This document shows positions 259 through 9,914 of a stretch of DNA of 64,000 nt, in pieces; within the stretch, counting starts at the first letter, position 1; the number at the start of each line of letters is the position of its first letter. The DNA is from a virus: positions 3,969 through 67,968 of IMG/VR virus record IMGVR_UViG_3300048834_000246. The stretch is one strand, 5' to 3'. The notes beneath the pieces were generated by a model, which was not told the DNA's origin, did not search any database, and saw only the letters and a list, made by a program, of their open reading frames with translations. The position numbers were made by a program, and so were the translations under genes.

Positions 259-531
259 GTGAGTCAGCGCACCGACACCTACGACGACAAATACGGCGCG
301 GTGGTCACAAGCCGCACCGGAGAGGTTACGGTCACGGTGGACACAATCACCGTGACCGAACCTCGTCGTGCCGGATGGGAAGCGTCGGACGAGCAACGGG
401 CGCTGTTCATCGCACTGGAAACAGCCAAGAGCACCGAGAACCGCAAGGATGCGCGGCTGGCCGCGAAGCACACCTACTGGACTAATGAGCGGTTACGACT
501 GCGGCAACGGGACACGCGAGGCGCACGCTAA
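259..531 (+). CDS. hypothetical protein (90 aa)
   Basis: Fills the gap between flanking genes; its TAA overlaps the ATG of the next gene (TAATG). Confidence 0.65.
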   Translation: MSQRTDTYDDKYGAVVTSRTGEVTVTVDTITVTEPRRAGWEASDEQRALFIALETAKSTENRKDARLAAKHTYWTNERLRLRQRDTRGAR

Positions 532-3500
532 TGGCTCCGGTGACGATTGCGGCGGGCGACAAGAACGCCTACTACGCATCGGGTGATGTAGGCTGGTCAG
601 CTCGGTCGGTCTTTGCGTATCACGGCGTTCTGAATCAACTTGCCGCAAACACGAATATGTCTCTTGCCTCGACTGTAGCGCAAGAGTATGTATCGACGGG
701 CATCACGCCCTCGTCGGCGTTCGATCTCAAATACCTACGTATTGCACTAAGTAAAGTAGGCTCTCCCACAGACTACGTGTATGTTGAGGTGCGATCAGAC
801 GACGGGAGCGACAAGCCGGGATCGACGGTTCTCGCAACGTCGGATCAGGTCAGTTGCGCAAGTCTTACGACCACAGGGACGTGGCGAACCTTTACCTTCC
901 CGACAGCAGTAGCGCTCAGTGCTTCGACGAAGTATTGGTTGGTTGCAAGGCGCACAGGGGCAGTTGACTCGGCGAACTACCCTCGTATCTCGTTTTCGTC
1001 GCTGAGTTCATACGGTGGTGGTGCGTCTTATTACAACTCGTCGACCGGACTATGGACTGGGGCGAATTTAGCTTGGGACTGGGCATGGCAGTTGCTACAG
1101 GAACATCCCGTTTCCCTCTACGCGGTCACACAAGACACGAGTTTGCACGTTTGGAAAAGCACCGATGACGGCGCGACGTGGGGTGAACAGGACGCAGCCG
1201 ACGCCCCGAGCGTAACCAACGCCAACTACCCGTTCGACGCCACCGATACCCGCGCTGGACCGTTTATCATCACCGCCCGTATGACCGGCACGAACACCGC
1301 CGCCGTGCGCGTGTTCAACATGAGTACCGACCAGTGGGACGCCGCTGATTACGGAGTCACGCCACCTTCGACGGTGAGCAACGAACGCAACATCCGGGTT
1401 GACAACCTCAATGCGTTCACGGCGGTGGGGAACGCCGCGATAACGCTGCATTACACCGACTCTGCTGACGATGCCGACATTGGTTATCAGCGGGTGACCG
1501 CAGCCGGGAACGCGTGGGGTTCGAAAGCCTCGGTCCTTTCGATTACTAGTGGCGAAGCCTCCCTTGTCGCCGACACAGTGATGGACCAGACGTCGCCCGG
1601 CTTCCTTCATCGATTCTTTTACGACTGCGCGAACGACGATTTCTCGCACCGCTCTCTCGTTACGACCACGCAGGGCACGCAGGTCGATATTGATACGACG
1701 GCTGCGGCCACGGACACCAAGCACGCCAGCGCCACGTATCAGCCATACCTGTCGTCCGGTGTCACGACGGTTGTCGCCGCCTACATCGACAGCGACGATA
1801 CCATCCGGGAGCGCATCTGTAGCCTCGATGTGACCAGCGCGTCCGTGACGATGGCGTCTGAGGCGCAGATTAGTGCCGCGACCACGACGGCGGGGCGGCA
1901 GCTCTCGACGTGTCGTTACGGGACCACGAACTACGCCGTTGTTGCCGTCTCGGGTACAGGCATCAGTTATCACACGTCCACTGTTGCTGGAACGTGGAGC
2001 AGTGCGACCGCGTGGAAAACGGGTCTGACGAACTGCGTGCTGAGTCGGGCGCTGGCGATCCCCGACGTGGGAGTCCTGGTCGTCTACACCGACAACGGTG
2101 ACGCGAAGATCGACTGGATCGTCGGGCCATTCGCCGGATCGGTCGATGGAATCGCAGATACCCAACCGGCCCTGCTCGAACTGACGGCACATTCCGTCAC
2201 CGCGACCGGCCAGCGCAACGAAACCGCCACCACCGAACCGGCGCTCCTGGAGTTCACCGGCCAAACCCTCGTGGCTTCAGCCGGGGCAACCGCCGCCACT
2301 GCACCCGCCCTGCTGGAGTTGACCGGCCAGTCGGTCACCGCCACCGGGCAACGCAATGAAACCGCTGCGGTCGATGAAGCGGCCCTGACGCTCACCGGGC
2401 AATCGGTGGTAGGGTCTGCGTCTGTTACGGCTGCTATTGGTCAAGCCCTCTTTAGCCTTATTGGACAAGCGGTTGAAGCAACCGGGCAAGTAAACGAAAC
2501 CGCCGTTATAGACGAGTCAGTGCTTACTCTCACTGGACAGTCCGTAGAAACGTCTGCGGGTACAACGGTAAGTATCTCCCAATCCGATTTAGCCCTAACT
2601 GGTCAATCCGTAGAAGCTACCGGTCAACGTAATGAAGACGCGGTTGTTGATTCGGCGGCGTTCGTTCTTACCGGTCAAACGGTCAATGTAACGGCAACCG
2701 TTACCGTAACGGCTGAAACAAGCGCCGCAAGCCTAACACTAACCGGTCAACCTGTGTCAGCGACCGGACAACGTAACGAAAACTCGGTGACGCTTCCAGC
2801 TACGTTAGCCATTACAGGACAAACAACGACAGCGACCGGCCAACGAAATGAAGTAGCTGAACTAACAAACGCAACAATAACCATCACCGGTCAACCGCTT
2901 ACGGCGTCGTCTGGTGTTACTGCAAGTGTTGATACGCCCACATTAGCCTTGACAGGACAAACCACTACCGCAACCGGACAGCGAAATGAAACCGCGTCTC
3001 TTGATATTGCTGCGTTCGTTCTTACGGGACAATCGGTTACAGCCACCGGTACAGCAAGCCAGGATGTAGAAACTGATCCGGCACAACTAACGCTAGTTGG
3101 TCAATCGGTAGAAGCAACCGGACAACGAAACGAGCTTGCTGACGTAGACCAATCCGTTCTGCAGCTACTCGGACAGCCCGTATCCGTTACGGCGTCTACA
3201 ACGGCAAGTATAAGCCAAGCTCCATTAATTCTTACCGGTCAGTTGGTGGACGTTAGCGGTCAACGGAATGAAACAGCAATAGTTGGTCAAAGTGCGTTCT
3301 CATTGGTGGGACACACCGTTACCGTTGAAGCTATGTCCGGGGCGAACGCCGATACAGATACCGCATCGTTCACCTTCACCGGTCAAGCCGTTGTTGCAAC
3401 CGGGCAGCGGAACGTTAGTGTAGCAACAAGCCCAACCGAATTTGTTCTCACCGGACAGCCGGTTTCGGCAACGGGACAACGAAATGAAACCGCCGAACCA

Positions 3501-3818
3501 CTACCAACGCCGTTTGTGGTTGAAGGAAAAGGCGTCGAAGTAACCGGCGAAACGAATATCCTACCTCTCACCGGCTCTTTTACCTTAACAGGACTCTCGG
3601 TAGTTGCGACCGGGGAAATGGTCGTTACGGACGTAACCCTGGTCGGTCAGGTAGCTGTCTATCCGTACTTTAGGGGATCGGTTGATGTAGAACCTGAGCT
3701 GTCTTCTATAGTAACTATTACAACGGAACTTGAAGGAGCCGTGTCTGTAACATCGGAATTTTTAGCAACAGTCAGCGTAGAACCTGTGCTAGTGGCGAGT
3801 ATGGAGATTGAACCATGA
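531..3818 (+). CDS. large virion fibre/adhesin-like protein with C-terminal LTGQxVxATGQRNE repeats
   Basis: 1095 aa, T/A/S/G/V-rich; N-terminal carbohydrate-binding-like region, a BNR-like motif (KSTDDGATW), and more than 20 repeats of about 20 aa. Confidence 0.7.
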   Translation: MAPVTIAAGDKNAYYASGDVGWSARSVFAYHGVLNQLAANTNMSLASTVAQEYVSTGITPSSAFDLKYLRIALSKVGSPTDYVYVEVRSDDGSDKPGSTVLATSDQVSCASLTTTGTWRTFTFPTAVALSASTKYWLVARRTGAVDSANYPRISFSSLSSYGGGASYYNSSTGLWTGANLAWDWAWQLLQEHPVSLYAVTQDTSLHVWKSTDDGATWGEQDAADAPSVTNANYPFDATDTRAGPFIITARMTGTNTAAVRVFNMSTDQWDAADYGVTPPSTVSNERNIRVDNLNAFTAVGNAAITLHYTDSADDADIGYQRVTAAGNAWGSKASVLSITSGEASLVADTVMDQTSPGFLHRFFYDCANDDFSHRSLVTTTQGTQVDIDTTAAATDTKHASATYQPYLSSGVTTVVAAYIDSDDTIRERICSLDVTSASVTMASEAQISAATTTAGRQLSTCRYGTTNYAVVAVSGTGISYHTSTVAGTWSSATAWKTGLTNCVLSRALAIPDVGVLVVYTDNGDAKIDWIVGPFAGSVDGIADTQPALLELTAHSVTATGQRNETATTEPALLEFTGQTLVASAGATAATAPALLELTGQSVTATGQRNETAAVDEAALTLTGQSVVGSASVTAAIGQALFSLIGQAVEATGQVNETAVIDESVLTLTGQSVETSAGTTVSISQSDLALTGQSVEATGQRNEDAVVDSAAFVLTGQTVNVTATVTVTAETSAASLTLTGQPVSATGQRNENSVTLPATLAITGQTTTATGQRNEVAELTNATITITGQPLTASSGVTASVDTPTLALTGQTTTATGQRNETASLDIAAFVLTGQSVTATGTASQDVETDPAQLTLVGQSVEATGQRNELADVDQSVLQLLGQPVSVTASTTASISQAPLILTGQLVDVSGQRNETAIVGQSAFSLVGHTVTVEAMSGANADTDTASFTFTGQAVVATGQRNVSVATSPTEFVLTGQPVSATGQRNETAEPLPTPFVVEGKGVEVTGETNILPLTGSFTLTGLSVVATGEMVVTDVTLVGQVAVYPYFRGSVDVEPELSSIVTITTELEGAVSVTSEFLATVSVEPVLVASMEIEP

Positions 3819-4123
3819 AATTATACCCAGGAATGACGGTAAGCCTGTGGCTTAACGGTTTAGCACCGGTCTTCGGTGGAGATAGTCTTGACCTTAATGA
3901 GGTAGATGTGACGTTTGCAATTGCCGATAGTGAGGATACTATTGTTGTTGCGTCCGGAGTCGCTACCCAAATCGGAGAATCGTTTCGTCGGATTGTGACC
4001 CTTCCTAGTTCTCCCGGTAGGTACGTTGTATTGACTCGGGCTGTGTCCGGAACGTCGGTGTATCGGTCAGCAACAGATATTCGTATCTTACCTGCGGCGG
4101 ACGAAATCGTAGAAAACCCTTGA
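3815..4123 (+). CDS. small Ig-like virion protein (paralog of 14132-14458)
   Basis: ATGA overlap with the previous gene; shared TF..D...T....LTLP...G.Y pattern with 14132-14458. Confidence 0.65.
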   Translation: MKLYPGMTVSLWLNGLAPVFGGDSLDLNEVDVTFAIADSEDTIVVASGVATQIGESFRRIVTLPSSPGRYVVLTRAVSGTSVYRSATDIRILPAADEIVENP

Positions 4124-4148
4124 CAGCAATGGAATAGGTGTGTATACT
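4120..4148 (+). promoter_or_regulatory. sigma70-type promoter of the tRNA/ncRNA operon
   Basis: TTGACA-17 bp-TATACT directly upstream of the RNA array. Confidence 0.85.
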
Positions 4149-4225
4149 ATGAATGTTGGACGAGGATGTTTCCTCCTTTCTGCCTCGCACAACATGACTC
4201 GGGCGGTGGCAAGCCGTCCGATCAC

Positions 4226-4300
4226 AGTCCTTTCGCCAAGCGGTAAGGCATCGGGTTTACATCCCGACATTCAGAGGTTCGAATCCTCTAAGGACTACCA
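4226..4300 (+). tRNA. tRNA-Val(TAC)
   Basis: AGTCCTT/AAGGACT acceptor stem, loop TTTACAT, TTCGAAT T-loop, encoded ACCA. Confidence 0.85.
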
Positions 4301-4463
4301 GCTTTCAGGGTGCTTGCACTCGCCGTAAGATATAGGCGCTAAAACTATCTTCTGGTAAAGTTCACCAGGCTGTTCAGTCTGTACGAGACGGCAAGAGCTT
4401 ACATAGCTTCGAGCCTAGATAGCTAGGCGGTACAGAGTTCGTTAGAATTACAAACTCGAAGCT
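4301..4463 (+). ncRNA. candidate pseudoknotted structured RNA
   Basis: CGCC/GGCG with AAGATA/TATCTT (H-type pseudoknot); GCTGT/ACGGC with TCTGTAC/GTACAGA; hairpins CTGGT/ACCAG and GCCTAG/CTAGGC. Confidence 0.5.
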
Positions 4464-4469
4464 TTTCTT

Positions 4470-4552
4470 GGGGGTGACAGGTTTGCCTAACAGAAGGGTA
4501 TAAAAACTTTGCGCTGTTAGAAACTCCGGTTCGAATCCGGACACTTCCACCA
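4470..4552 (+). ncRNA. minimal tmRNA-like tRNA-like domain (no mRNA-like domain)
   Basis: GGGGGTG/CACTTCC-ACCA acceptor with G3.U70; stemless D-loop ACAGGTTTGC; helix CTAACAG/CTGTTAG; T-arm TCCGG-TTCGAAT-CCGGA. Confidence 0.75.
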
Positions 4553-4605
4553 AGCTCTACAGAGACGAAATAGAGCAAAAATCTAAAAGTCTTAGGAGTA
4601 ACAAC

Positions 4606-4779
4606 ATGGCTAGACGGAGAAAAGTAACACAGAAACAGACACAGGAAACTGTAGAAGAAACTGTAGAAGAAATTGTAGAAGAAACTGTAGAAGAAACTGT
4701 AGAAGAAACATCGCAGGAGCCTCTTGTAATGACCGCGGCGGGTCTTCAACGGATGGGTGCCCAACGTAAAACAACCTAA
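4606..4779 (+). CDS. small protein (57 aa) with a basic N-terminus and ETVE repeats
   Basis: AGGAG RBS then ATG; MARRRKVTQKQTQETVEETVEEIVEETVEETVEETS...; absent from the ORF track. Confidence 0.7.
   Translation: MARRRKVTQKQTQETVEETVEEIVEETVEETVEETSQEPLVMTAAGLQRMGAQRKTT
4645..4709 (+). repeat. 12-bp tandem repeat GAAACTGTAGAA, about 5 copies
   Basis: Visible directly; in frame within 4606-4779. Confidence 0.9.
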
Positions 4780-4796
4780 GAATTTTTTATGAAAGG

Positions 4797-5000
4797 ATGT
4801 GCGGTATAACGAACGAAGAGCGAATTGCAAATTTAGAAACAGCGTTGTACCAAGCGCTATTTGCAATTGGGTACCTTTTAGGGTATAGTTTATCTAAGGC
4901 GGAAACCGACGAAGAAAAGCAAACACTTCAAGAACAAGTTCTCGGTCGGTTTCCCCCCGCAATGCACGATGAAATTATTGCATTGTTAGTATCGGAATAA
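4797..5000 (+). CDS. hypothetical protein (67 aa)
   Basis: Plausible helical protein; its stop overlaps the 5' end of tRNA-Pro. Confidence 0.55.
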   Translation: MCGITNEERIANLETALYQALFAIGYLLGYSLSKAETDEEKQTLQEQVLGRFPPAMHDEIIALLVSE

Positions 5001-5065
5001 GGCCGAACTGGTGAGGCGCGGCGTTTGGGACGCTGAAATAGTAGGTTCGAGTCCTGCTATTCCGA
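4993..5065 (+). tRNA. tRNA-Pro(TGG)
   Basis: CGGAATA/TATTCCG stem, loop TTTGGGA, TTCGAGT T-loop. Confidence 0.9.
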
Positions 5066-5069
5066 CCGT

Positions 5070-5157
5070 GGAAAAGTGGCAGAGCGGGTGGTTGCTTTTG
5101 TCTTGAAAACAAACGTAGATGACGAATCTACCGTGGGTTCGAATCCCACCTTTTCCT
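5070..5157 (+). tRNA. tRNA-Ser(TGA)
   Basis: GGAAAAG/CTTTTCC stem, loop CTTGAAA, long variable arm. Confidence 0.9.
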
Positions 5158-5162
5158 CTTAT

Positions 5163-5236
5163 TCGGGAGTCGTCCAACGGTAAGACGAGTGACTTTGGAT
5201 CATTCTATCGGGGTTCGAATCCCTGCTCCCGATCCA
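5163..5236 (+). tRNA. tRNA-Gln(TTG)
   Basis: TCGGGAG/CTCCCGA stem, loop CTTTGGA, encoded CCA. Confidence 0.9.
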
Positions 5237-5383
5237 AGCCAAGAAAGGGTGACTCCCTTCCTACGAATGCCTAGTCAGCGACCGTAGAGTAGTGTAAAAG
5301 GCACGGGCGTTTGAACTGACCCTGAGGTAAAAAGACTACGACTTGGAAGATGCCAGACTGTAGGGTATTTAATAAGGGTCTTT

Positions 5384-5461
5384 ATCAGAGTAGTTTCTGT
5401 TGGTAGAAATCCTCCGCTGTTAACGGAGAGTGCGAAGGTTCGATCCCTTCCTCTGGTGCCA
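5384..5461 (+). tRNA. tRNA-Asn(GTT)
   Basis: ATCAGAG/CTCTGGT stem, loop CTGTTAA, GCCA end. Confidence 0.85.
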
Positions 5462-5618
5462 TGTATAGTTTGCGTGATACCATCTATGCAGTTGCCGAGT
5501 TGCAGCGGGTAAGTAGACAACCTGCAACAGATAGCGATATTATCACTAGGCGCTATCGGTCAGGGGTGGTCCCTGGGTCCGGACACGAGGCCGATTTGGT
5601 ACAAGTGATCCGGATAAA

Positions 5619-5692
5619 AATGATGATATAGTGTAATGGGAGCATAACCGTCTTTATGTCGGTAGGAGAGGTTCGAATCCTCACCATCGTTT
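5619..5692 (+). tRNA. degenerate tRNA-like gene, apparent anticodon TTA
   Basis: D-loop TAATGGGA and T-arm GAGG-TTCGAAT-CCTC; ACCG/CGGT stem around loop TCTTTATGT; irregular acceptor stem. Confidence 0.5.
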
Positions 5693-5696
5693 TCTT

Positions 5697-5780
5697 GGGC
5701 TATTGGTGAAAGTGGCATACACGGTTGGCTTAAAACCAACTTCCTTTACGGGATTGAAGGTTCGAGTCCTTCATGGCCTA
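5697..5780 (+). tRNA. tRNA-Leu(TAA)
   Basis: GGGCTAT/ATGGCCT stem, loop CTTAAAA, variable arm. Confidence 0.9.
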
Positions 5781-5795
5781 CCGAGAAAAAGCTTA

Positions 5796-5876
5796 CGGGG
5801 TATGGTGGAATAAGCAGACACGCTATCCTTAGAAGATAGTGCCTAGAGCGTACAGGTGCAAATCCTGTTACCCTGA
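5796..5876 (+). tRNA. tRNA-Leu(TAG)
   Basis: CGGGGTA/TACCCTG stem, loop CTTAGAA, variable arm. Confidence 0.85.
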
Positions 5877-5895
5877 CTAGATTTGGAGGGATTTT

Positions 5896-6297
5896 GTGCC
5901 GTACGCAGATAGGGCTGTTCAATTAGAATATCAAAAAAAGTGGATGGAAAAACGCCGAAACGATTATTTTTTGGACAAACGATGTGCGGATTGTGGCTCA
6001 AAAGAAAATTTAGAATTAGATCATGTATATAGACAAACTAAAATTACTCATAGAATTTGGTCATGGTCCAAACAACGACAAGAAGAAGAACTTGCAAAAT
6101 GTGTTGCGCGGTGCCATACTTGTCATGTAAAAAAGACGTTGGATAAAGATTTGCCACGAGCTAAGCACGGAACACGAAGTAAATATAATGCAGGTTGCAG
6201 ATGTGCTGAGTGTAGAGAAGCTCTGAGAGTAGATGTTTCTAAATGGAGAGAACAGAAAAAGACTGAGCGAATGTGTAGCACGAATCTTGTTTCATAA
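5896..6297 (+). CDS. HNH endonuclease
   Basis: CADC...LELDHV...CHTCH, plus a C-terminal HG...CRCAEC motif; GGAGG RBS. Confidence 0.85.
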   Translation: MPYADRAVQLEYQKKWMEKRRNDYFLDKRCADCGSKENLELDHVYRQTKITHRIWSWSKQRQEEELAKCVARCHTCHVKKTLDKDLPRAKHGTRSKYNAGCRCAECREALRVDVSKWREQKKTERMCSTNLVS

Positions 6298-6335
6298 GCA
6301 AGAATTTAAGGGGGCGGCACCCTTATTCGCCACCA
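6266..6335 (+). tRNA. degenerate tRNA-Met(CAT)-like gene overlapping the HNH 3' end
   Basis: GCGAAT/ATTCGC stem plus ACCA, CTTGT-TTCATAA-GCAAG anticodon arm; D-arm reduced and T-loop non-canonical. Confidence 0.5.
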
Positions 6336-6427
6336 AACTAGAGGATAATCACGACCTGCTCCGAGGATGTATGCATTAAATCCTTGTGACGTACCTCTAG
6401 CGGAGACTCTGAATCTCCGGGGTCTTT

Positions 6428-6499
6428 ATGAGTGTAGTTCAACGGAAGAACAGCGGCCTCCAAACCCGCTTGTTGAGGGTTCGAATCCTTCCACTCATG
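6428..6499 (+). tRNA. tRNA-Trp(CCA)
   Basis: ATGAGTG/CACTCAT stem, loop CTCCAAA. Confidence 0.9.
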
Positions 6500-6600
6500 C
6501 CGAAAAGCTAAACTCTTCGGGAGGTCCGTGGTTTAGGGAAGTCAGGTCGCCCCTGATGGAAGTATGAGCCTATTGCAGCGCCTCATGCGAACGGACATTT

Positions 6601-6674
6601 GGTTTTATAGCGCAATTGGATAGCGCCCCGGCTTGTCACGCCGGTGGGTACGGGTTCGAATCCCGTTAGAACCG
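6601..6674 (+). tRNA. tRNA-Asp(GTC)
   Basis: GGTTTTA/TAGAACC stem, loop TTGTCAC. Confidence 0.9.
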
Positions 6675-6680
6675 CAGAAG

Positions 6681-6776
6681 ACCCAACAGTGGAACCGTTG
6701 GTTGGGTGAGGAAGAGTACGTGGGGTGAGATTCCCACACCGAAAGGTGCAGATTGCTACTGGCGTGCGAACGGTTC
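6681..6776 (+). ncRNA. candidate permuted-tRNA-like (YrlA/Y-RNA-like) RNA
   Basis: Four-way junction of GTACG/CGTGC, a T-like arm TGGG-GTGAGAT-TCCCA, CACC-GAAA-GGTG and CAG/CTG; outer helix GAACCGTT/AACGGTTC. Confidence 0.4.
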
Positions 6777-6780
6777 ATTT

Positions 6781-6853
6781 GTTCAAGTAGCTCAGCGGAT
6801 AGAGTCACCGTCTTCTAAGCGGTCGGTCATAGGTTCGAATCCTATCTTGAACA
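6781..6853 (+). tRNA. tRNA-Arg(TCT)
   Basis: GTTCAAG/CTTGAAC stem, loop CTTCTAA. Confidence 0.9.
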
Positions 6854-6884
6854 CCGTGCGGGATTAGCTAATGAAGGGAGAAAC

Positions 6885-7259
6885 GTGTACTCTAACGAAC
6901 AAATGAATGAGTATATGAAAAATCGGTGGACGAAACGACGAGAAACCGCTATACTAAGTTTAGGTGGAGTATGTGTTTCTTGTGGAAGTACTGAAAATTT
7001 AGAATTTGACCATATTGATCCTAATACAAAAGAGTTTACTCTAGCGGCGGGATCAGGATTTTCCGAAGAACGATTCTCTAAAGAATTAGCTAAGTGTCAA
7101 CTTCTTTGTGTATCGTGCCATAAACTAAAACACAGGGCACCCCATGGAACGTTAGCTAGAAAACGAGATTGTAACTGTTCTTTGTGTAAAGAAGCTTGGA
7201 ATACGTGGAACCGAGAATATAAACGACGTAGACGACAAGCAAAAAATATCCCGTTGTAG
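6885..7259 (+). CDS. HNH endonuclease (paralog of 5896-6297)
   Basis: CVSC...LEFDHIDP...ELAKCQLLCVSCH, plus HG...CNCSLC. Confidence 0.85.
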   Translation: MYSNEQMNEYMKNRWTKRRETAILSLGGVCVSCGSTENLEFDHIDPNTKEFTLAAGSGFSEERFSKELAKCQLLCVSCHKLKHRAPHGTLARKRDCNCSLCKEAWNTWNREYKRRRRQAKNIPL

Positions 7260-7322
7260 TAGAGTGGCCGCTACACTAGACTTTTAATCTTTGAGACAGA
7301 GGTTCGAATCCTCTCAGCGGGA
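7250..7322 (+). tRNA. tRNA-Lys(TTT)
   Basis: CCCGTTG/CAGCGGG stem, loop CTTTTAA (weak anticodon stem), canonical T-arm. Confidence 0.75.
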
Positions 7323-7333
7323 CTAAATAACTT

Positions 7334-7407
7334 GGGGAAATCGCCTAACGGAATGGCACCTTCTTTGCAAGAAGGAATAATTGTGGATTCGAATTCCACT
7401 TTCTCCA
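7334..7407 (+). tRNA. tRNA-Ala(TGC)
   Basis: GGGGAAA/TTTCTCC stem with G3.U70, loop TTTGCAA. Confidence 0.85.
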
Positions 7408-7548
7408 CCGGGCGCAACCTGCCGAAAGTGGTTGGCTTAGGGTAGTTGGCTGCAATTACCTACGCTCTATATCATAACGAGGCGTCAAATTACCCACGCC
7501 TACCGGGATTCCGGGCATATAGAGGGGGAATAGATACAAGGAGAGATT

Positions 7549-7794
7549 GTGCAACCTGAACCTACCATAACAATTGTTAGTGGAAGTGATTGGACTCAGT
7601 TATATGTTAATGATGACTGTGTTGAAGAAAATCATAGCATTAGTTTAACTCACGGTTTAGATGCGTTGGATATTCCCTACCAAACTATTTCTGTCGATGA
7701 CGATAGTGTTATGGAAGAAATTTCCGGGTATAATTATTCTCTTCGTAAAGTAAAAGATATTATTGAAAACTCAGGACAACTACCGTTGTTCTAA
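7549..7794 (+). CDS. hypothetical acidic protein (81 aa)
   Basis: AAGGAGAG RBS then GTG. Confidence 0.7.
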   Translation: MQPEPTITIVSGSDWTQLYVNDDCVEENHSISLTHGLDALDIPYQTISVDDDSVMEEISGYNYSLRKVKDIIENSGQLPLF

Positions 7795-7799
7795 AATAT

Positions 7800-7872
7800 G
7801 GTGTTCATGGCCGAGCGGATTAGGCACACGTCTGTGGAACGTGGTAGGTGGGTTCAATTCCCACTGAGTACC
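7800..7872 (+). tRNA. tRNA-His(GTG)
   Basis: G-1 plus GTGTTCA/TGAGTAC-C, loop CTGTGGA. Confidence 0.9.
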
Positions 7873-7887
7873 CCCAAAAGTATCTAT

Positions 7888-7959
7888 GTCCGTATGGTGA
7901 AAAGCATATCACCAATGTCTTCGAAACATTAGTTGTGGGTTGGATTCCTACTACGGACA
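7888..7959 (+). tRNA. tRNA-Arg(TCG)
   Basis: GTCCGTA/TACGGAC stem, loop CTTCGAA; T-loop TTGGATT is non-canonical. Confidence 0.8.
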
Positions 7960-7964
7960 CTAAT

Positions 7965-8039
7965 GCGCTAGTCGTATAACGGCTATTACCGCAGTTTTCC
8001 AAACTGCCGATCAGAGTTCGATTCTCTGCTGGCGCTCCA
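7965..8039 (+). tRNA. tRNA-Gly(TCC)
   Basis: GCGCTAG/CTGGCGC stem, loop TTTCCAA, TCCA end. Confidence 0.9.
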
Positions 8040-8040
8040 C

Positions 8041-8118
8041 GCATCCTTAGCTCAGACTGGTCAGAGCGGCTATCTTGTAAATAGCGGGTCAAGTGTTCGA
8101 ATCACTTAGGATGCTCCA
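8041..8118 (+). tRNA. tRNA-Thr(TGT)
   Basis: GCATCCT/AGGATGC stem, loop CTTGTAA, TCCA end. Confidence 0.9.
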
Positions 8119-9258: not shown

Positions 9259-9720
9259 TTAAAAATTCCCACGTCTTGATCCTTCCCATACTCGATACAT
9301 ATACGCTAATGTTGGTAGTTCTTTAGAAGATACGGCTTGAAGAAGTTGCTCAGTGTTGTCCAGACGCCCTACAAAAGGCATATTCTCAAAGAGTTGTTCT
9401 TGTGGTCCGATGACAATACAGCCTTTCTTTAGCGTGTACGCTCGTCCAAACTCCCAAAATTTCCCCCCTCCAACATGATAACGAGGATCATTGCTCGTAA
9501 ACATAATAAACAAATCGCAATTCGCTACGTCTTTTGAATCACGTACTGCGTCGGCTTGCTTGACCTCAAATGTTCGTGTACTTTCTCGGTCATGTGGCCC
9601 GTCTGGATCGTCTAACCAGGAACTAACAGAAATAAGGGTAGGATCATACGAAATTACTTTGTCTCGAATACCTCTAATTTCGTTTTTTCTATACCATGAA
9701 CCGGCAAAATAGATTTTCAC
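9259..9720 (-). CDS. nucleoside 2-deoxyribosyltransferase/N-glycosidase-like protein
   Basis: MKIYFAG, D..DV..CD, G...EFG.A motifs. Confidence 0.7.
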   Translation of the reverse strand: MKIYFAGSWYRKNEIRGIRDKVISYDPTLISVSSWLDDPDGPHDRESTRTFEVKQADAVRDSKDVANCDLFIMFTSNDPRYHVGGGKFWEFGRAYTLKKGCIVIGPQEQLFENMPFVGRLDNTEQLLQAVSSKELPTLAYMYRVWEGSRRGNF

Positions 9721-9914
9721 TAAAAGTTGTCTCCTTCTTCATTCTCTTCCAAAATCTCTGCTAAAGTATCGCGTACTTCCTCTACTCTGTCAATAGTCTC
9801 TATAGATACCCTACTATTCCTATCGAAATCTTTTAAAACATCACAGAGACAAGCATGTGTAATAAGCAGAAATTCCATATCTATGTTTTTTCTAAAAACG
9901 TTATACCGCCTCAT
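9720..9914 (-). CDS. hypothetical protein (64 aa)
   Basis: Packed within the - strand operon. Confidence 0.55.
   Translation of the reverse strand: MRRYNVFRKNIDMEFLLITHACLCDVLKDFDRNSRVSIETIDRVEEVRDTLAEILEENEEGDNF

Follow-up and report, generated by a model that had tools for sequence, protein, structure and literature searches.

A knotted RNA element beside a tag-less tmRNA-like gene in a phage tRNA operon

At the start of a phage tRNA operon, a tRNA-Val gene and a minimal tmRNA-like gene are separated by a stretch of DNA whose transcript could fold intricately, and this raises the question of what kind of RNA the stretch encodes and whether that RNA belongs with its tmRNA-like neighbor. The locus was analyzed in a window of 64,000 nt, bases 3969–67968 of a 67,968-bp IMG/VR virus record (IMGVR_UViG_3300048834_000246) that CheckV rates as complete; positions are those of the window unless another record is named. 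The phage has no close isolate, and its closest terminase match stands at 48% identity. A first, sequence-only reading had described a chain of pseudoknots directly upstream of a mini-tmRNA and had proposed a possible split tmRNA-like system, in which the knotted RNA would be released by processing of its neighbors and act in trans with the mini-tmRNA.

The setting is that of a tRNA operon. ARAGORN finds 17 tRNA genes on the + strand within 4226–8118, with HNH endonuclease genes dispersed through the array. A sigma-70-like promoter match precedes the array (Table 1), and no terminator-like site was found between this promoter and position 5133. The first three products of the operon would be tRNA-Val, the stretch 4301–4469 and an 83-nt tRNA-like domain (TLD), with the 3′ end of tRNA-Val forming the upstream boundary of the precursor of the knotted element.

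The neighboring mini-tmRNA, on which the earlier proposal depended, is genuine. Its Rfam tmRNA match runs from model position 1 to 374 with 306 positions deleted, and its score lies below the gathering score of 47. The acceptor stem has 7 bp and is of the alanine type, with the G3-U70 pair at G4472/T4546; a T arm, a discriminator A and a CCA end (4550–52) are encoded, and the P2 hairpin stands where the mRNA part and the pseudoknot ring would be. Judged by sequence criteria, with neither a tag frame nor pseudoknots between the P2 strands, the gene belongs to the TLD-only form of phage tmRNA. This form (‘Standard, no CDS’) is known from mycobacteriophage DS6A, and the 2025 tmRNA database counts nine TLD-only sequences (PMC4131195, PMC11915505). 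The same sources describe a DS6A-like molecule that inhibits tmRNA in E. coli, perhaps through titration of SmpB (PMC4131195, PMC11915505). In its alanine-type acceptor stem, T arm, CCA end and hairpin in place of the ring, the TLD of the window is a molecule of the same kind. The difference lies in what accompanies it: the element is not part of the TLD RNA, and the available text on DS6A mentions no companion pseudoknot RNA (PMC4131195, PMC11915505). An SmpB gene was found neither in this phage nor in its relative, so the TLD must use the SmpB of the host.

The element itself (4321–4463) comprises about 145 nt that, on good comparative evidence, would fold into three interlocked pseudoknots and a three-way junction with nine helices in all (Table 1). 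Several parts of this fold had been placed correctly from the single sequence, namely the first pseudoknot, hairpin A and the stems S_a and S_b. Others had to be redrawn. The loose closing helix GCTTT 4301-05/GAAGC 4459-63 is not kept, and GAAGC pairs with 4406–4410 in the conserved stem S_c (7–9 bp). Two hairpins had been seen within the second pseudoknot, of which one (4413–28) holds, whereas the other (4437–55) sits 3′ of the knot, inside S_c. A further pseudoknot stem, S_d, had been missed; it joins the loop of hairpin A to a strand downstream of S_a.

Table 1. Coordinates of annotated and predicted features around the element (window positions)
Feature	Position	Strand	Components	Basis or remark
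Sigma-70-like promoter	4120..4148	+	TTGACA-17 nt-TATACT	11/12 consensus positions; consensus match only
tRNA-Val	4226..4300	+	anticodon TAC, encoded CCA	ARAGORN; Rfam tRNA 65.3 bits
Leader	4301..4320	+	20 nt	no counterpart in L006
Pseudoknot 1, H-type	4321..4351	+	S1 CGCC 4321-24/GGCG 4335-38; S2 AAGATA 4327-32/TATCTT 4346-51; A-rich loop CTAAAAC 4339-45	
Pseudoknot 2	4352..4400	+	hairpin A CTGGT 4352-56/ACCAG 4364-68, 7-nt loop; S_d 4358-63/4395-4400; S_a between	
S_a hairpin	4369..4392	+	GCTGT 4369-73/ACGGC 4388-92; 14-nt loop holding S_b 5′ strand	
Pseudoknot 3 stem S_b	4379..4435	+	4379-84/4430-35; (T)CTGTAC 4378/79-84 with GTACAG(A) 4430-35/36	ties S_a loop into three-way junction
Three-way junction	4405..4463	+	S_c 4405-12/4456-63; hairpin B 4413-18/4423-28; hairpin C 4437-42/4450-55	
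Pyrimidine spacer	4464..4469	+	TTTCTT, 6 nt	up to TLD 5′ end and expected RNase P cut; cleavage predicted
TLD-only mini-tmRNA, tag-less	4470..4552	+		Rfam tmRNA RF00023 37.7 bits, E 2e-13; uncalled by ARAGORN
Possible second PK1-like fold	4554..4593	+	4554-59/4571-76; 4562-66/4589-93; A-rich 4577-88	

Folded on its own, the window sequence is no better than chance, its nested minimum free energy of −49.2 kcal/mol, given by a program that is blind to pseudoknots, corresponding to z = −1.15, with 23 of 200 shuffles folding as well. The case for the structure comes from comparison. A primase search of IMG/VR led to three related records at 73% protein identity. Two of these, L006 (= G002, complete, with terminal repeats) and L007 (= G003), each carry a TLD, which in L006 scores 46.4 bits with the Rfam tmRNA model at 9664–9752 on the minus strand, and a stretch homologous to window 4319–4466 lies directly downstream of the L006 TLD. 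Because they are identical across the element, L006 and L007 count as one sequence. The third record ends inside its tRNA array, and neither TLD nor element is visible there.

Two kinds of evidence indicate that pairing has been conserved between the lineages. A covariance model made from the window sequence aligned with itself, with six nested stems (R1), finds the relative at 9513–9665 on the minus strand of L006 with 45.4 bits (E 3e-10), while the same sequence without structure (R2) scores it at 18.5 bits (E 1e-4); the conserved nested pairing therefore accounts for about 27 bits. In the alignment produced by the model, RNAalifold predicts 31 pairs, 10 of which are changed on both sides and kept. 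A table of the nine helices was compiled by hand from an alignment fitted to the structure; with two independent sequences, its covariation counts are small. It lists 48 pairs that both lineages form, of which 27 are unchanged, 2 are changed on one side and 19 on both. Four other pairs form in the window only and three in L006 only.

The double changes are distributed over most of the fold. All 5 shared pairs of S2 have changed on both sides, as have 2 of 4 in S1, 3 of 5 in hairpin C, 2 of 5 in hairpin B (with 1 one-sided change), 2 of 8 in S_c and 1 of 4 in hairpin A, which starts directly after pseudoknot 1. The stem S_d, also predicted independently by RNAalifold, has 6 shared pairs with 3 double changes and 1 one-sided change, and one of the 6 shared pairs of S_b has passed from T-A to C-G. 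The 5 pairs of S_a are invariant in both lineages, as is the length of its loop (14 nt), and this stem is for that reason uninformative for covariation. Hairpin C has almost the same 7-nt loop in the two lineages, TAGAATT in the window and TAGAAAT in L006. Absence of covariation had been named at the outset among the observations that would refute the proposal; with 19 of the 48 shared pairs doubly compensated in L006, the comparison of two lineages amounts to good evidence of a conserved fold, though not to statistical proof.

The element has a narrow known distribution. It is single-copy per genome and, in searches that covered records other than close relatives of the window, was found in two lineages only, that of the window and that of G002/G003. 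In distant mode, blastn with 4100–4800 against 50,697 phage records matched the tRNA-Val part alone. Exact and gapped DNA patterns drawn from the 5′ half returned G002/G003 and chance matches only: in IMG/VR they gave 2 + 31 stretches, where R1 matched none of 29 loci (the two G002/G003 loci being left out), and in GTDB genomes they gave five stretches, again with no R1 match. A 3′-half pattern returned 50 stretches, and in the 48 searched (without the two of G002/G003) the best R1 hit had an E of 0.33, which is no match. Protein anchors were equally unproductive. The primase alignment recovered from metagenome contigs a single 6.7-kb contig, which stops short of the element. The dNMP-kinase alignment led to 66 loci in IMG/VR, and neither R1 nor a two-sequence covariance model (R3) matched any of the 63 that were searched (G001–G003 being set apart); tRNA arrays occur in 2 of these 63 loci, and a TLD in neither.

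The coupling of element and TLD that the earlier reading had supposed holds in part. They are adjacent in both lineages that have the element, whereas the TLD-only genes of three other phages (L003–L005) stand without it, as apparently does a contig of a close relative. At all three of these loci no element was found within 1.5 kb upstream or in the 0.3–1.5 kb of downstream sequence; in L004 and L005 the TLD is followed by an AT-rich spacer and then by a protein gene, with no separate coding unit.

Close relatives are represented by contigs from four public runs (X1–X4), compared at the DNA level only (the run marked ‘RNA?’ is probably DNA). In X1, a contig of 4,671 nt matches 4020–4305 and 4523–4980, and the element and the 5′ part of the TLD in its window form are absent. 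The element seems dispensable in this relative because 66 other, unrelated nucleotides replace 4306–4522. In X2, the match ends at 4300 and is followed by 15 nt that fit hairpin A at 13 positions, so that this relative seems to be without the leader and pseudoknot 1 (4301–4351). Contigs of X2 and X4 run from 4430/4433 through the TLD as in the window, and an X3 contig spans 4070–4409 with 22 differences and 6 gaps. The one close relative apparently without the element comes from wastewater; small word shares in wastewater, aquatic and compost runs were not taken as evidence of habitat.

Gene order differs between the two lineages. The element precedes the TLD in the window and follows it in L006, on the same strand in both cases, and in L006 it begins directly at the TLD 3′ end. 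In each lineage it fills the entire spacer between two tRNA-type genes, and in L006 a 6-nt spacer, TCACTT, leads from it to tRNA-Tyr. Release of the element as an RNA of its own through processing of the flanking tRNA ends is plausible, since it fills the inter-tRNA spacer and 6 nt lead to the next RNase P site. The element also seems to evolve as one unit with the TLD.

A tandem duplication from which the outer copies were later lost would swap the order and keep the two genes adjacent, and tandem duplication is the usual route invoked for circular permutation. The ancestor would then have had the order TLD-PK1-core, and this phage would carry PK1-core-TLD with a remnant of PK1 at its end. 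A weak candidate for such a remnant is the PK1-like fold just 3′ of the TLD (Table 1), which ends at the ribosome-binding site of ORF 4606–4779 and occupies, seen from the TLD 3′ end, the place that pseudoknot 1 has in L006. The p value for sequence similarity is ∼0.04–0.08, and two changes seen in two close relatives (X1, X3), C4566A and T4590G, break the second stem. Adjacency in two lineages is in any case weak evidence of shared function, because duplication and deletion keep neighbors together without selection.

The explanation favored here, tentatively and at somewhat less than an even chance, is that 4321–4463 encodes a non-coding RNA, about 145 nt long, which is cut out by tRNA processing, evolves with the TLD and, as a working guess, serves as a decoy or scaffold beside it. 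The element would be the second product of the phage tRNA operon, between tRNA-Val and the TLD. Its 3′ end would be created by RNase P cutting at G4470, and its 5′ side would arise when the 3′ end of tRNA-Val matures. Working alongside the TLD, the folded RNA might, on this guess, be a decoy for some host protein involved in ribosome rescue or RNA decay, or a scaffold for it. The TLD itself would be a competitor of host tmRNA for SmpB, an effect reported for the DS6A form.

That the element is a separate small RNA of the phage with a task outside trans-translation, such as an anti-defense decoy, and owes its place next to the TLD to inherited gene order, is rather unlikely but keeps real weight. 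The element has no sequence or structural link to tmRNA models and does not pair with the TLD; TLD-only genes do without it at all three other loci, and the X1 relative seems to retain the 3′ part of the TLD in its absence. There is also a precedent, as phage tRNA clusters carry stable non-tRNA RNAs of obscure function such as T4 species 1 and 2, which are co-transcribed with the phage tRNAs and freed by tRNA-processing enzymes. The present RNA differs from these in being linked to a TLD-only tmRNA mimic. Against independence, TLD and element have stayed adjacent in two lineages despite the swapped order, and in both a PK1-like fold sits immediately 3′ of the TLD, although neither argument is strong.

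It is doubtful that the element is a structured spacer acting in cis, one that keeps the folding of tRNA-Val apart from that of the TLD, directs the cuts of RNase P or RNase E, or stops exonucleases, and that has no role once released. Its position is the one expected of such a device, exactly between tRNA genes and always ending 6 nt before an RNase P site, and its apparent dispensability in a close relative agrees with this. However, nine helices, three of which are pseudoknot stems, and a conserved 7-nt loop go far beyond the other spacers in the arrays, a search of the four records with both covariance models revealed no further copy and no comparable spacer, and the flanking genes differ between the two lineages.

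Similarly improbable is the idea that TLD and element are the two products of a split, tag-less and permutable tmRNA gene, which would reassemble without base pairing, on SmpB, ribosomal protein S1 or the ribosome. If true, it would describe an RNA particle made by the phage that could take over or shut down ribosome rescue in the host, and a fourth form of tmRNA gene beside the standard, intron-containing and permuted ones. A known system that resembles this is the two-piece tmRNA made from circularly permuted ssrA genes, recorded in Alphaproteobacteria, Cyanobacteria, some Betaproteobacteria and marine phages such as Melnitz (PMC11915505, PMC9004378). The likeness is that one locus would yield two RNAs by tRNA-type processing, and that the order is permuted with tandem duplication as the likely route, as these same texts have it for the two-piece form (PMC11915505, PMC9004378). 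In two-piece tmRNA, however, the TLD itself is split, the pieces are held together by pairing in the acceptor stem and P2, and the coding piece carries the tag frame, whereas here the TLD is whole and self-contained, and element and TLD share neither pairing nor a tag frame.

The mechanism at the center of the sequence-only reading, in which the element would be the detached mRNA-like and pseudoknot half of a tmRNA, joining the charged TLD in trans and supplying the tag frame, proved weak and is now very unlikely. Its attractions are the adjacency to the TLD in an order permuted as in known permuted tmRNA genes, the H-type pseudoknot with an A-rich loop that comes first, like PK1 in tmRNA, and a GCT GTT (Ala-Val) frame after hairpin A in both lineages. 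Like the PK1–PK4 ring, the element has several H-type pseudoknots in succession, and in the first of them loop 1 is short and loop 3 is A-rich, but an A-rich third loop is generic to H-type pseudoknots and is not diagnostic. In standard tmRNA the pseudoknots are arranged like beads on a string, and the message follows PK1. In the element, by contrast, the knots interlock through hairpin loops that pair into junctions further downstream, and a single-stranded message is absent.

The search for a reading frame gave a consistent answer. The earlier reading had itself cautioned that a typical tag was lacking, rightly so: among GCN-started frames compared by eye in both lineages none is conserved, and no tag frame with a resume codon and in-frame stop was found to be shared among the relatives. 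In the window the best candidate, the GCT GTT frame, is 17 codons long, while its L006 counterpart has 11 and ends differently; the frame sits within the conserved stems S_a and S_b, where substitutions keep pairs and not codons. A single-stranded resume region is likewise missing after pseudoknot 1, since hairpin A abuts it without an unpaired nucleotide in both lineages.

Nor is there a helix that would tether the element to the TLD. Shuffled elements equal or surpass the real one in 77% of cases for duplex energy and in 20% for the longest helix, and element-TLD helices of at least 8 are present in 97–100% of shuffles. The acceptor stem and P2 are closed within the TLD itself. Rfam models are also silent on the element: with E values up to 10 in window 4100–5000, the tmRNA model matched 4470–4552 only, and in L006 9480–9900 the tmRNA match ends at the TLD (9664). 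The best permuted-tmRNA match, RF04321 on L006 9592–9691, spans the TLD 3′ end and the 5′ part of the element at 14.7 bits (E 0.61) and is not significant. At the gathering threshold Rfam 15 returned tRNAs only in the element region, and the best sub-threshold matches on the element, with scores well short of the gathering scores, had E values of 2.8 and 9.9, those of L006 being similar. With neither a conserved frame nor pairing to the TLD, the element does not qualify as the coding half of a split tmRNA.

A non-functional stretch, whether the decaying remnant of a complete phage tmRNA or a chance fold, would fit the unremarkable single-sequence folding z-scores (−1.15 and −1.27) and the presence/absence variation among close relatives, but it can be set aside almost entirely given 19 double compensatory changes against 7 one-lineage pairs, the 27 bits added by structure and the nine helices, which would not survive decay.

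A companion RNA of this type is represented in no Rfam family and is new to the open-access literature searched, where no paper was found that describes a pseudoknot RNA paired with a TLD-only tmRNA. One report of host tmRNA fragments bound by an anti-CRISPR has no bearing on the element (PMC11662646). Published knowledge of TLD-only mimics comes mainly from one phage, DS6A, and a conserved knotted RNA accompanying such a mimic would add a second actor to the locus. Should element and TLD cooperate, phages would interfere with ribosome rescue by means beyond SmpB titration, and the locus would offer a naturally occurring example of an RNA gene unit that duplication has permuted. Taken alone, the element would be a compact new fold, with three interlocked knots in about 145 nt, and of interest for RNA structure.

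Some further observations concern the TLD. The contigs of all four runs carry G4533A and A4535T in its T loop (tRNA positions 57 and 59), and the window version at these positions is the minority form among the close relatives. Its first 18 nt (4470–4487) are identical in the TLD-only genes of L003–L005 (positions 1501–1518), three unrelated AT-rich IMG/VR phages whose TLD sequences differ beyond this 18-mer; the sharing hints at a phage-specific TLD lineage or at a common constraint. Host tmRNA was considered as the source of the TLD and rejected: the same 18 nt occur in 17 GTDB stretches, none of them a tmRNA (Rfam recognized a TPP riboswitch only), and R1 matched none of the 17.

Within the tRNA array, two genes (5620–5691 and 7250–7323) have the anticodon TTA and would decode the stop codon TAA. 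According to Rfam one is weak (31.7 bits) and the other good (56.1 bits), and no such tRNA is present in the relative L006. TAA is the stop of 41 of the 61 non-overlapping ORFs of at least 90 aa, and, read with the standard code, long ORFs are uninterrupted. Reading through TAA to the ends of mRNAs would stall ribosomes, which might connect these tRNAs with the TLD. Upstream of the operon, ORF 531–3818 (1,095 codons) stands out with 56% G+C, compared with ∼45% elsewhere in the genome, and has no PHROG match.

In L006, two minus-strand stretches, 10394–10361 and 9846–9810, resemble the 5′ and 3′ halves of one tRNA gene, the latter comprising the T arm, acceptor strand and CCA. They lie ∼0.5 kb apart, with complementary acceptor strands and with a complete tRNA-Val and an HNH-type ORF in between; this arrangement could reflect a large intron or an insertion into a tRNA gene. 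Finally, ORF 4606–4779, of 57 codons and just 3′ of the TLD, has no PHROG match and consists mostly of a repeated 12-nt unit, GAAGAAACTGTA, and its variants; close relatives show differences of 12 nt, inserted or deleted, in this ORF.
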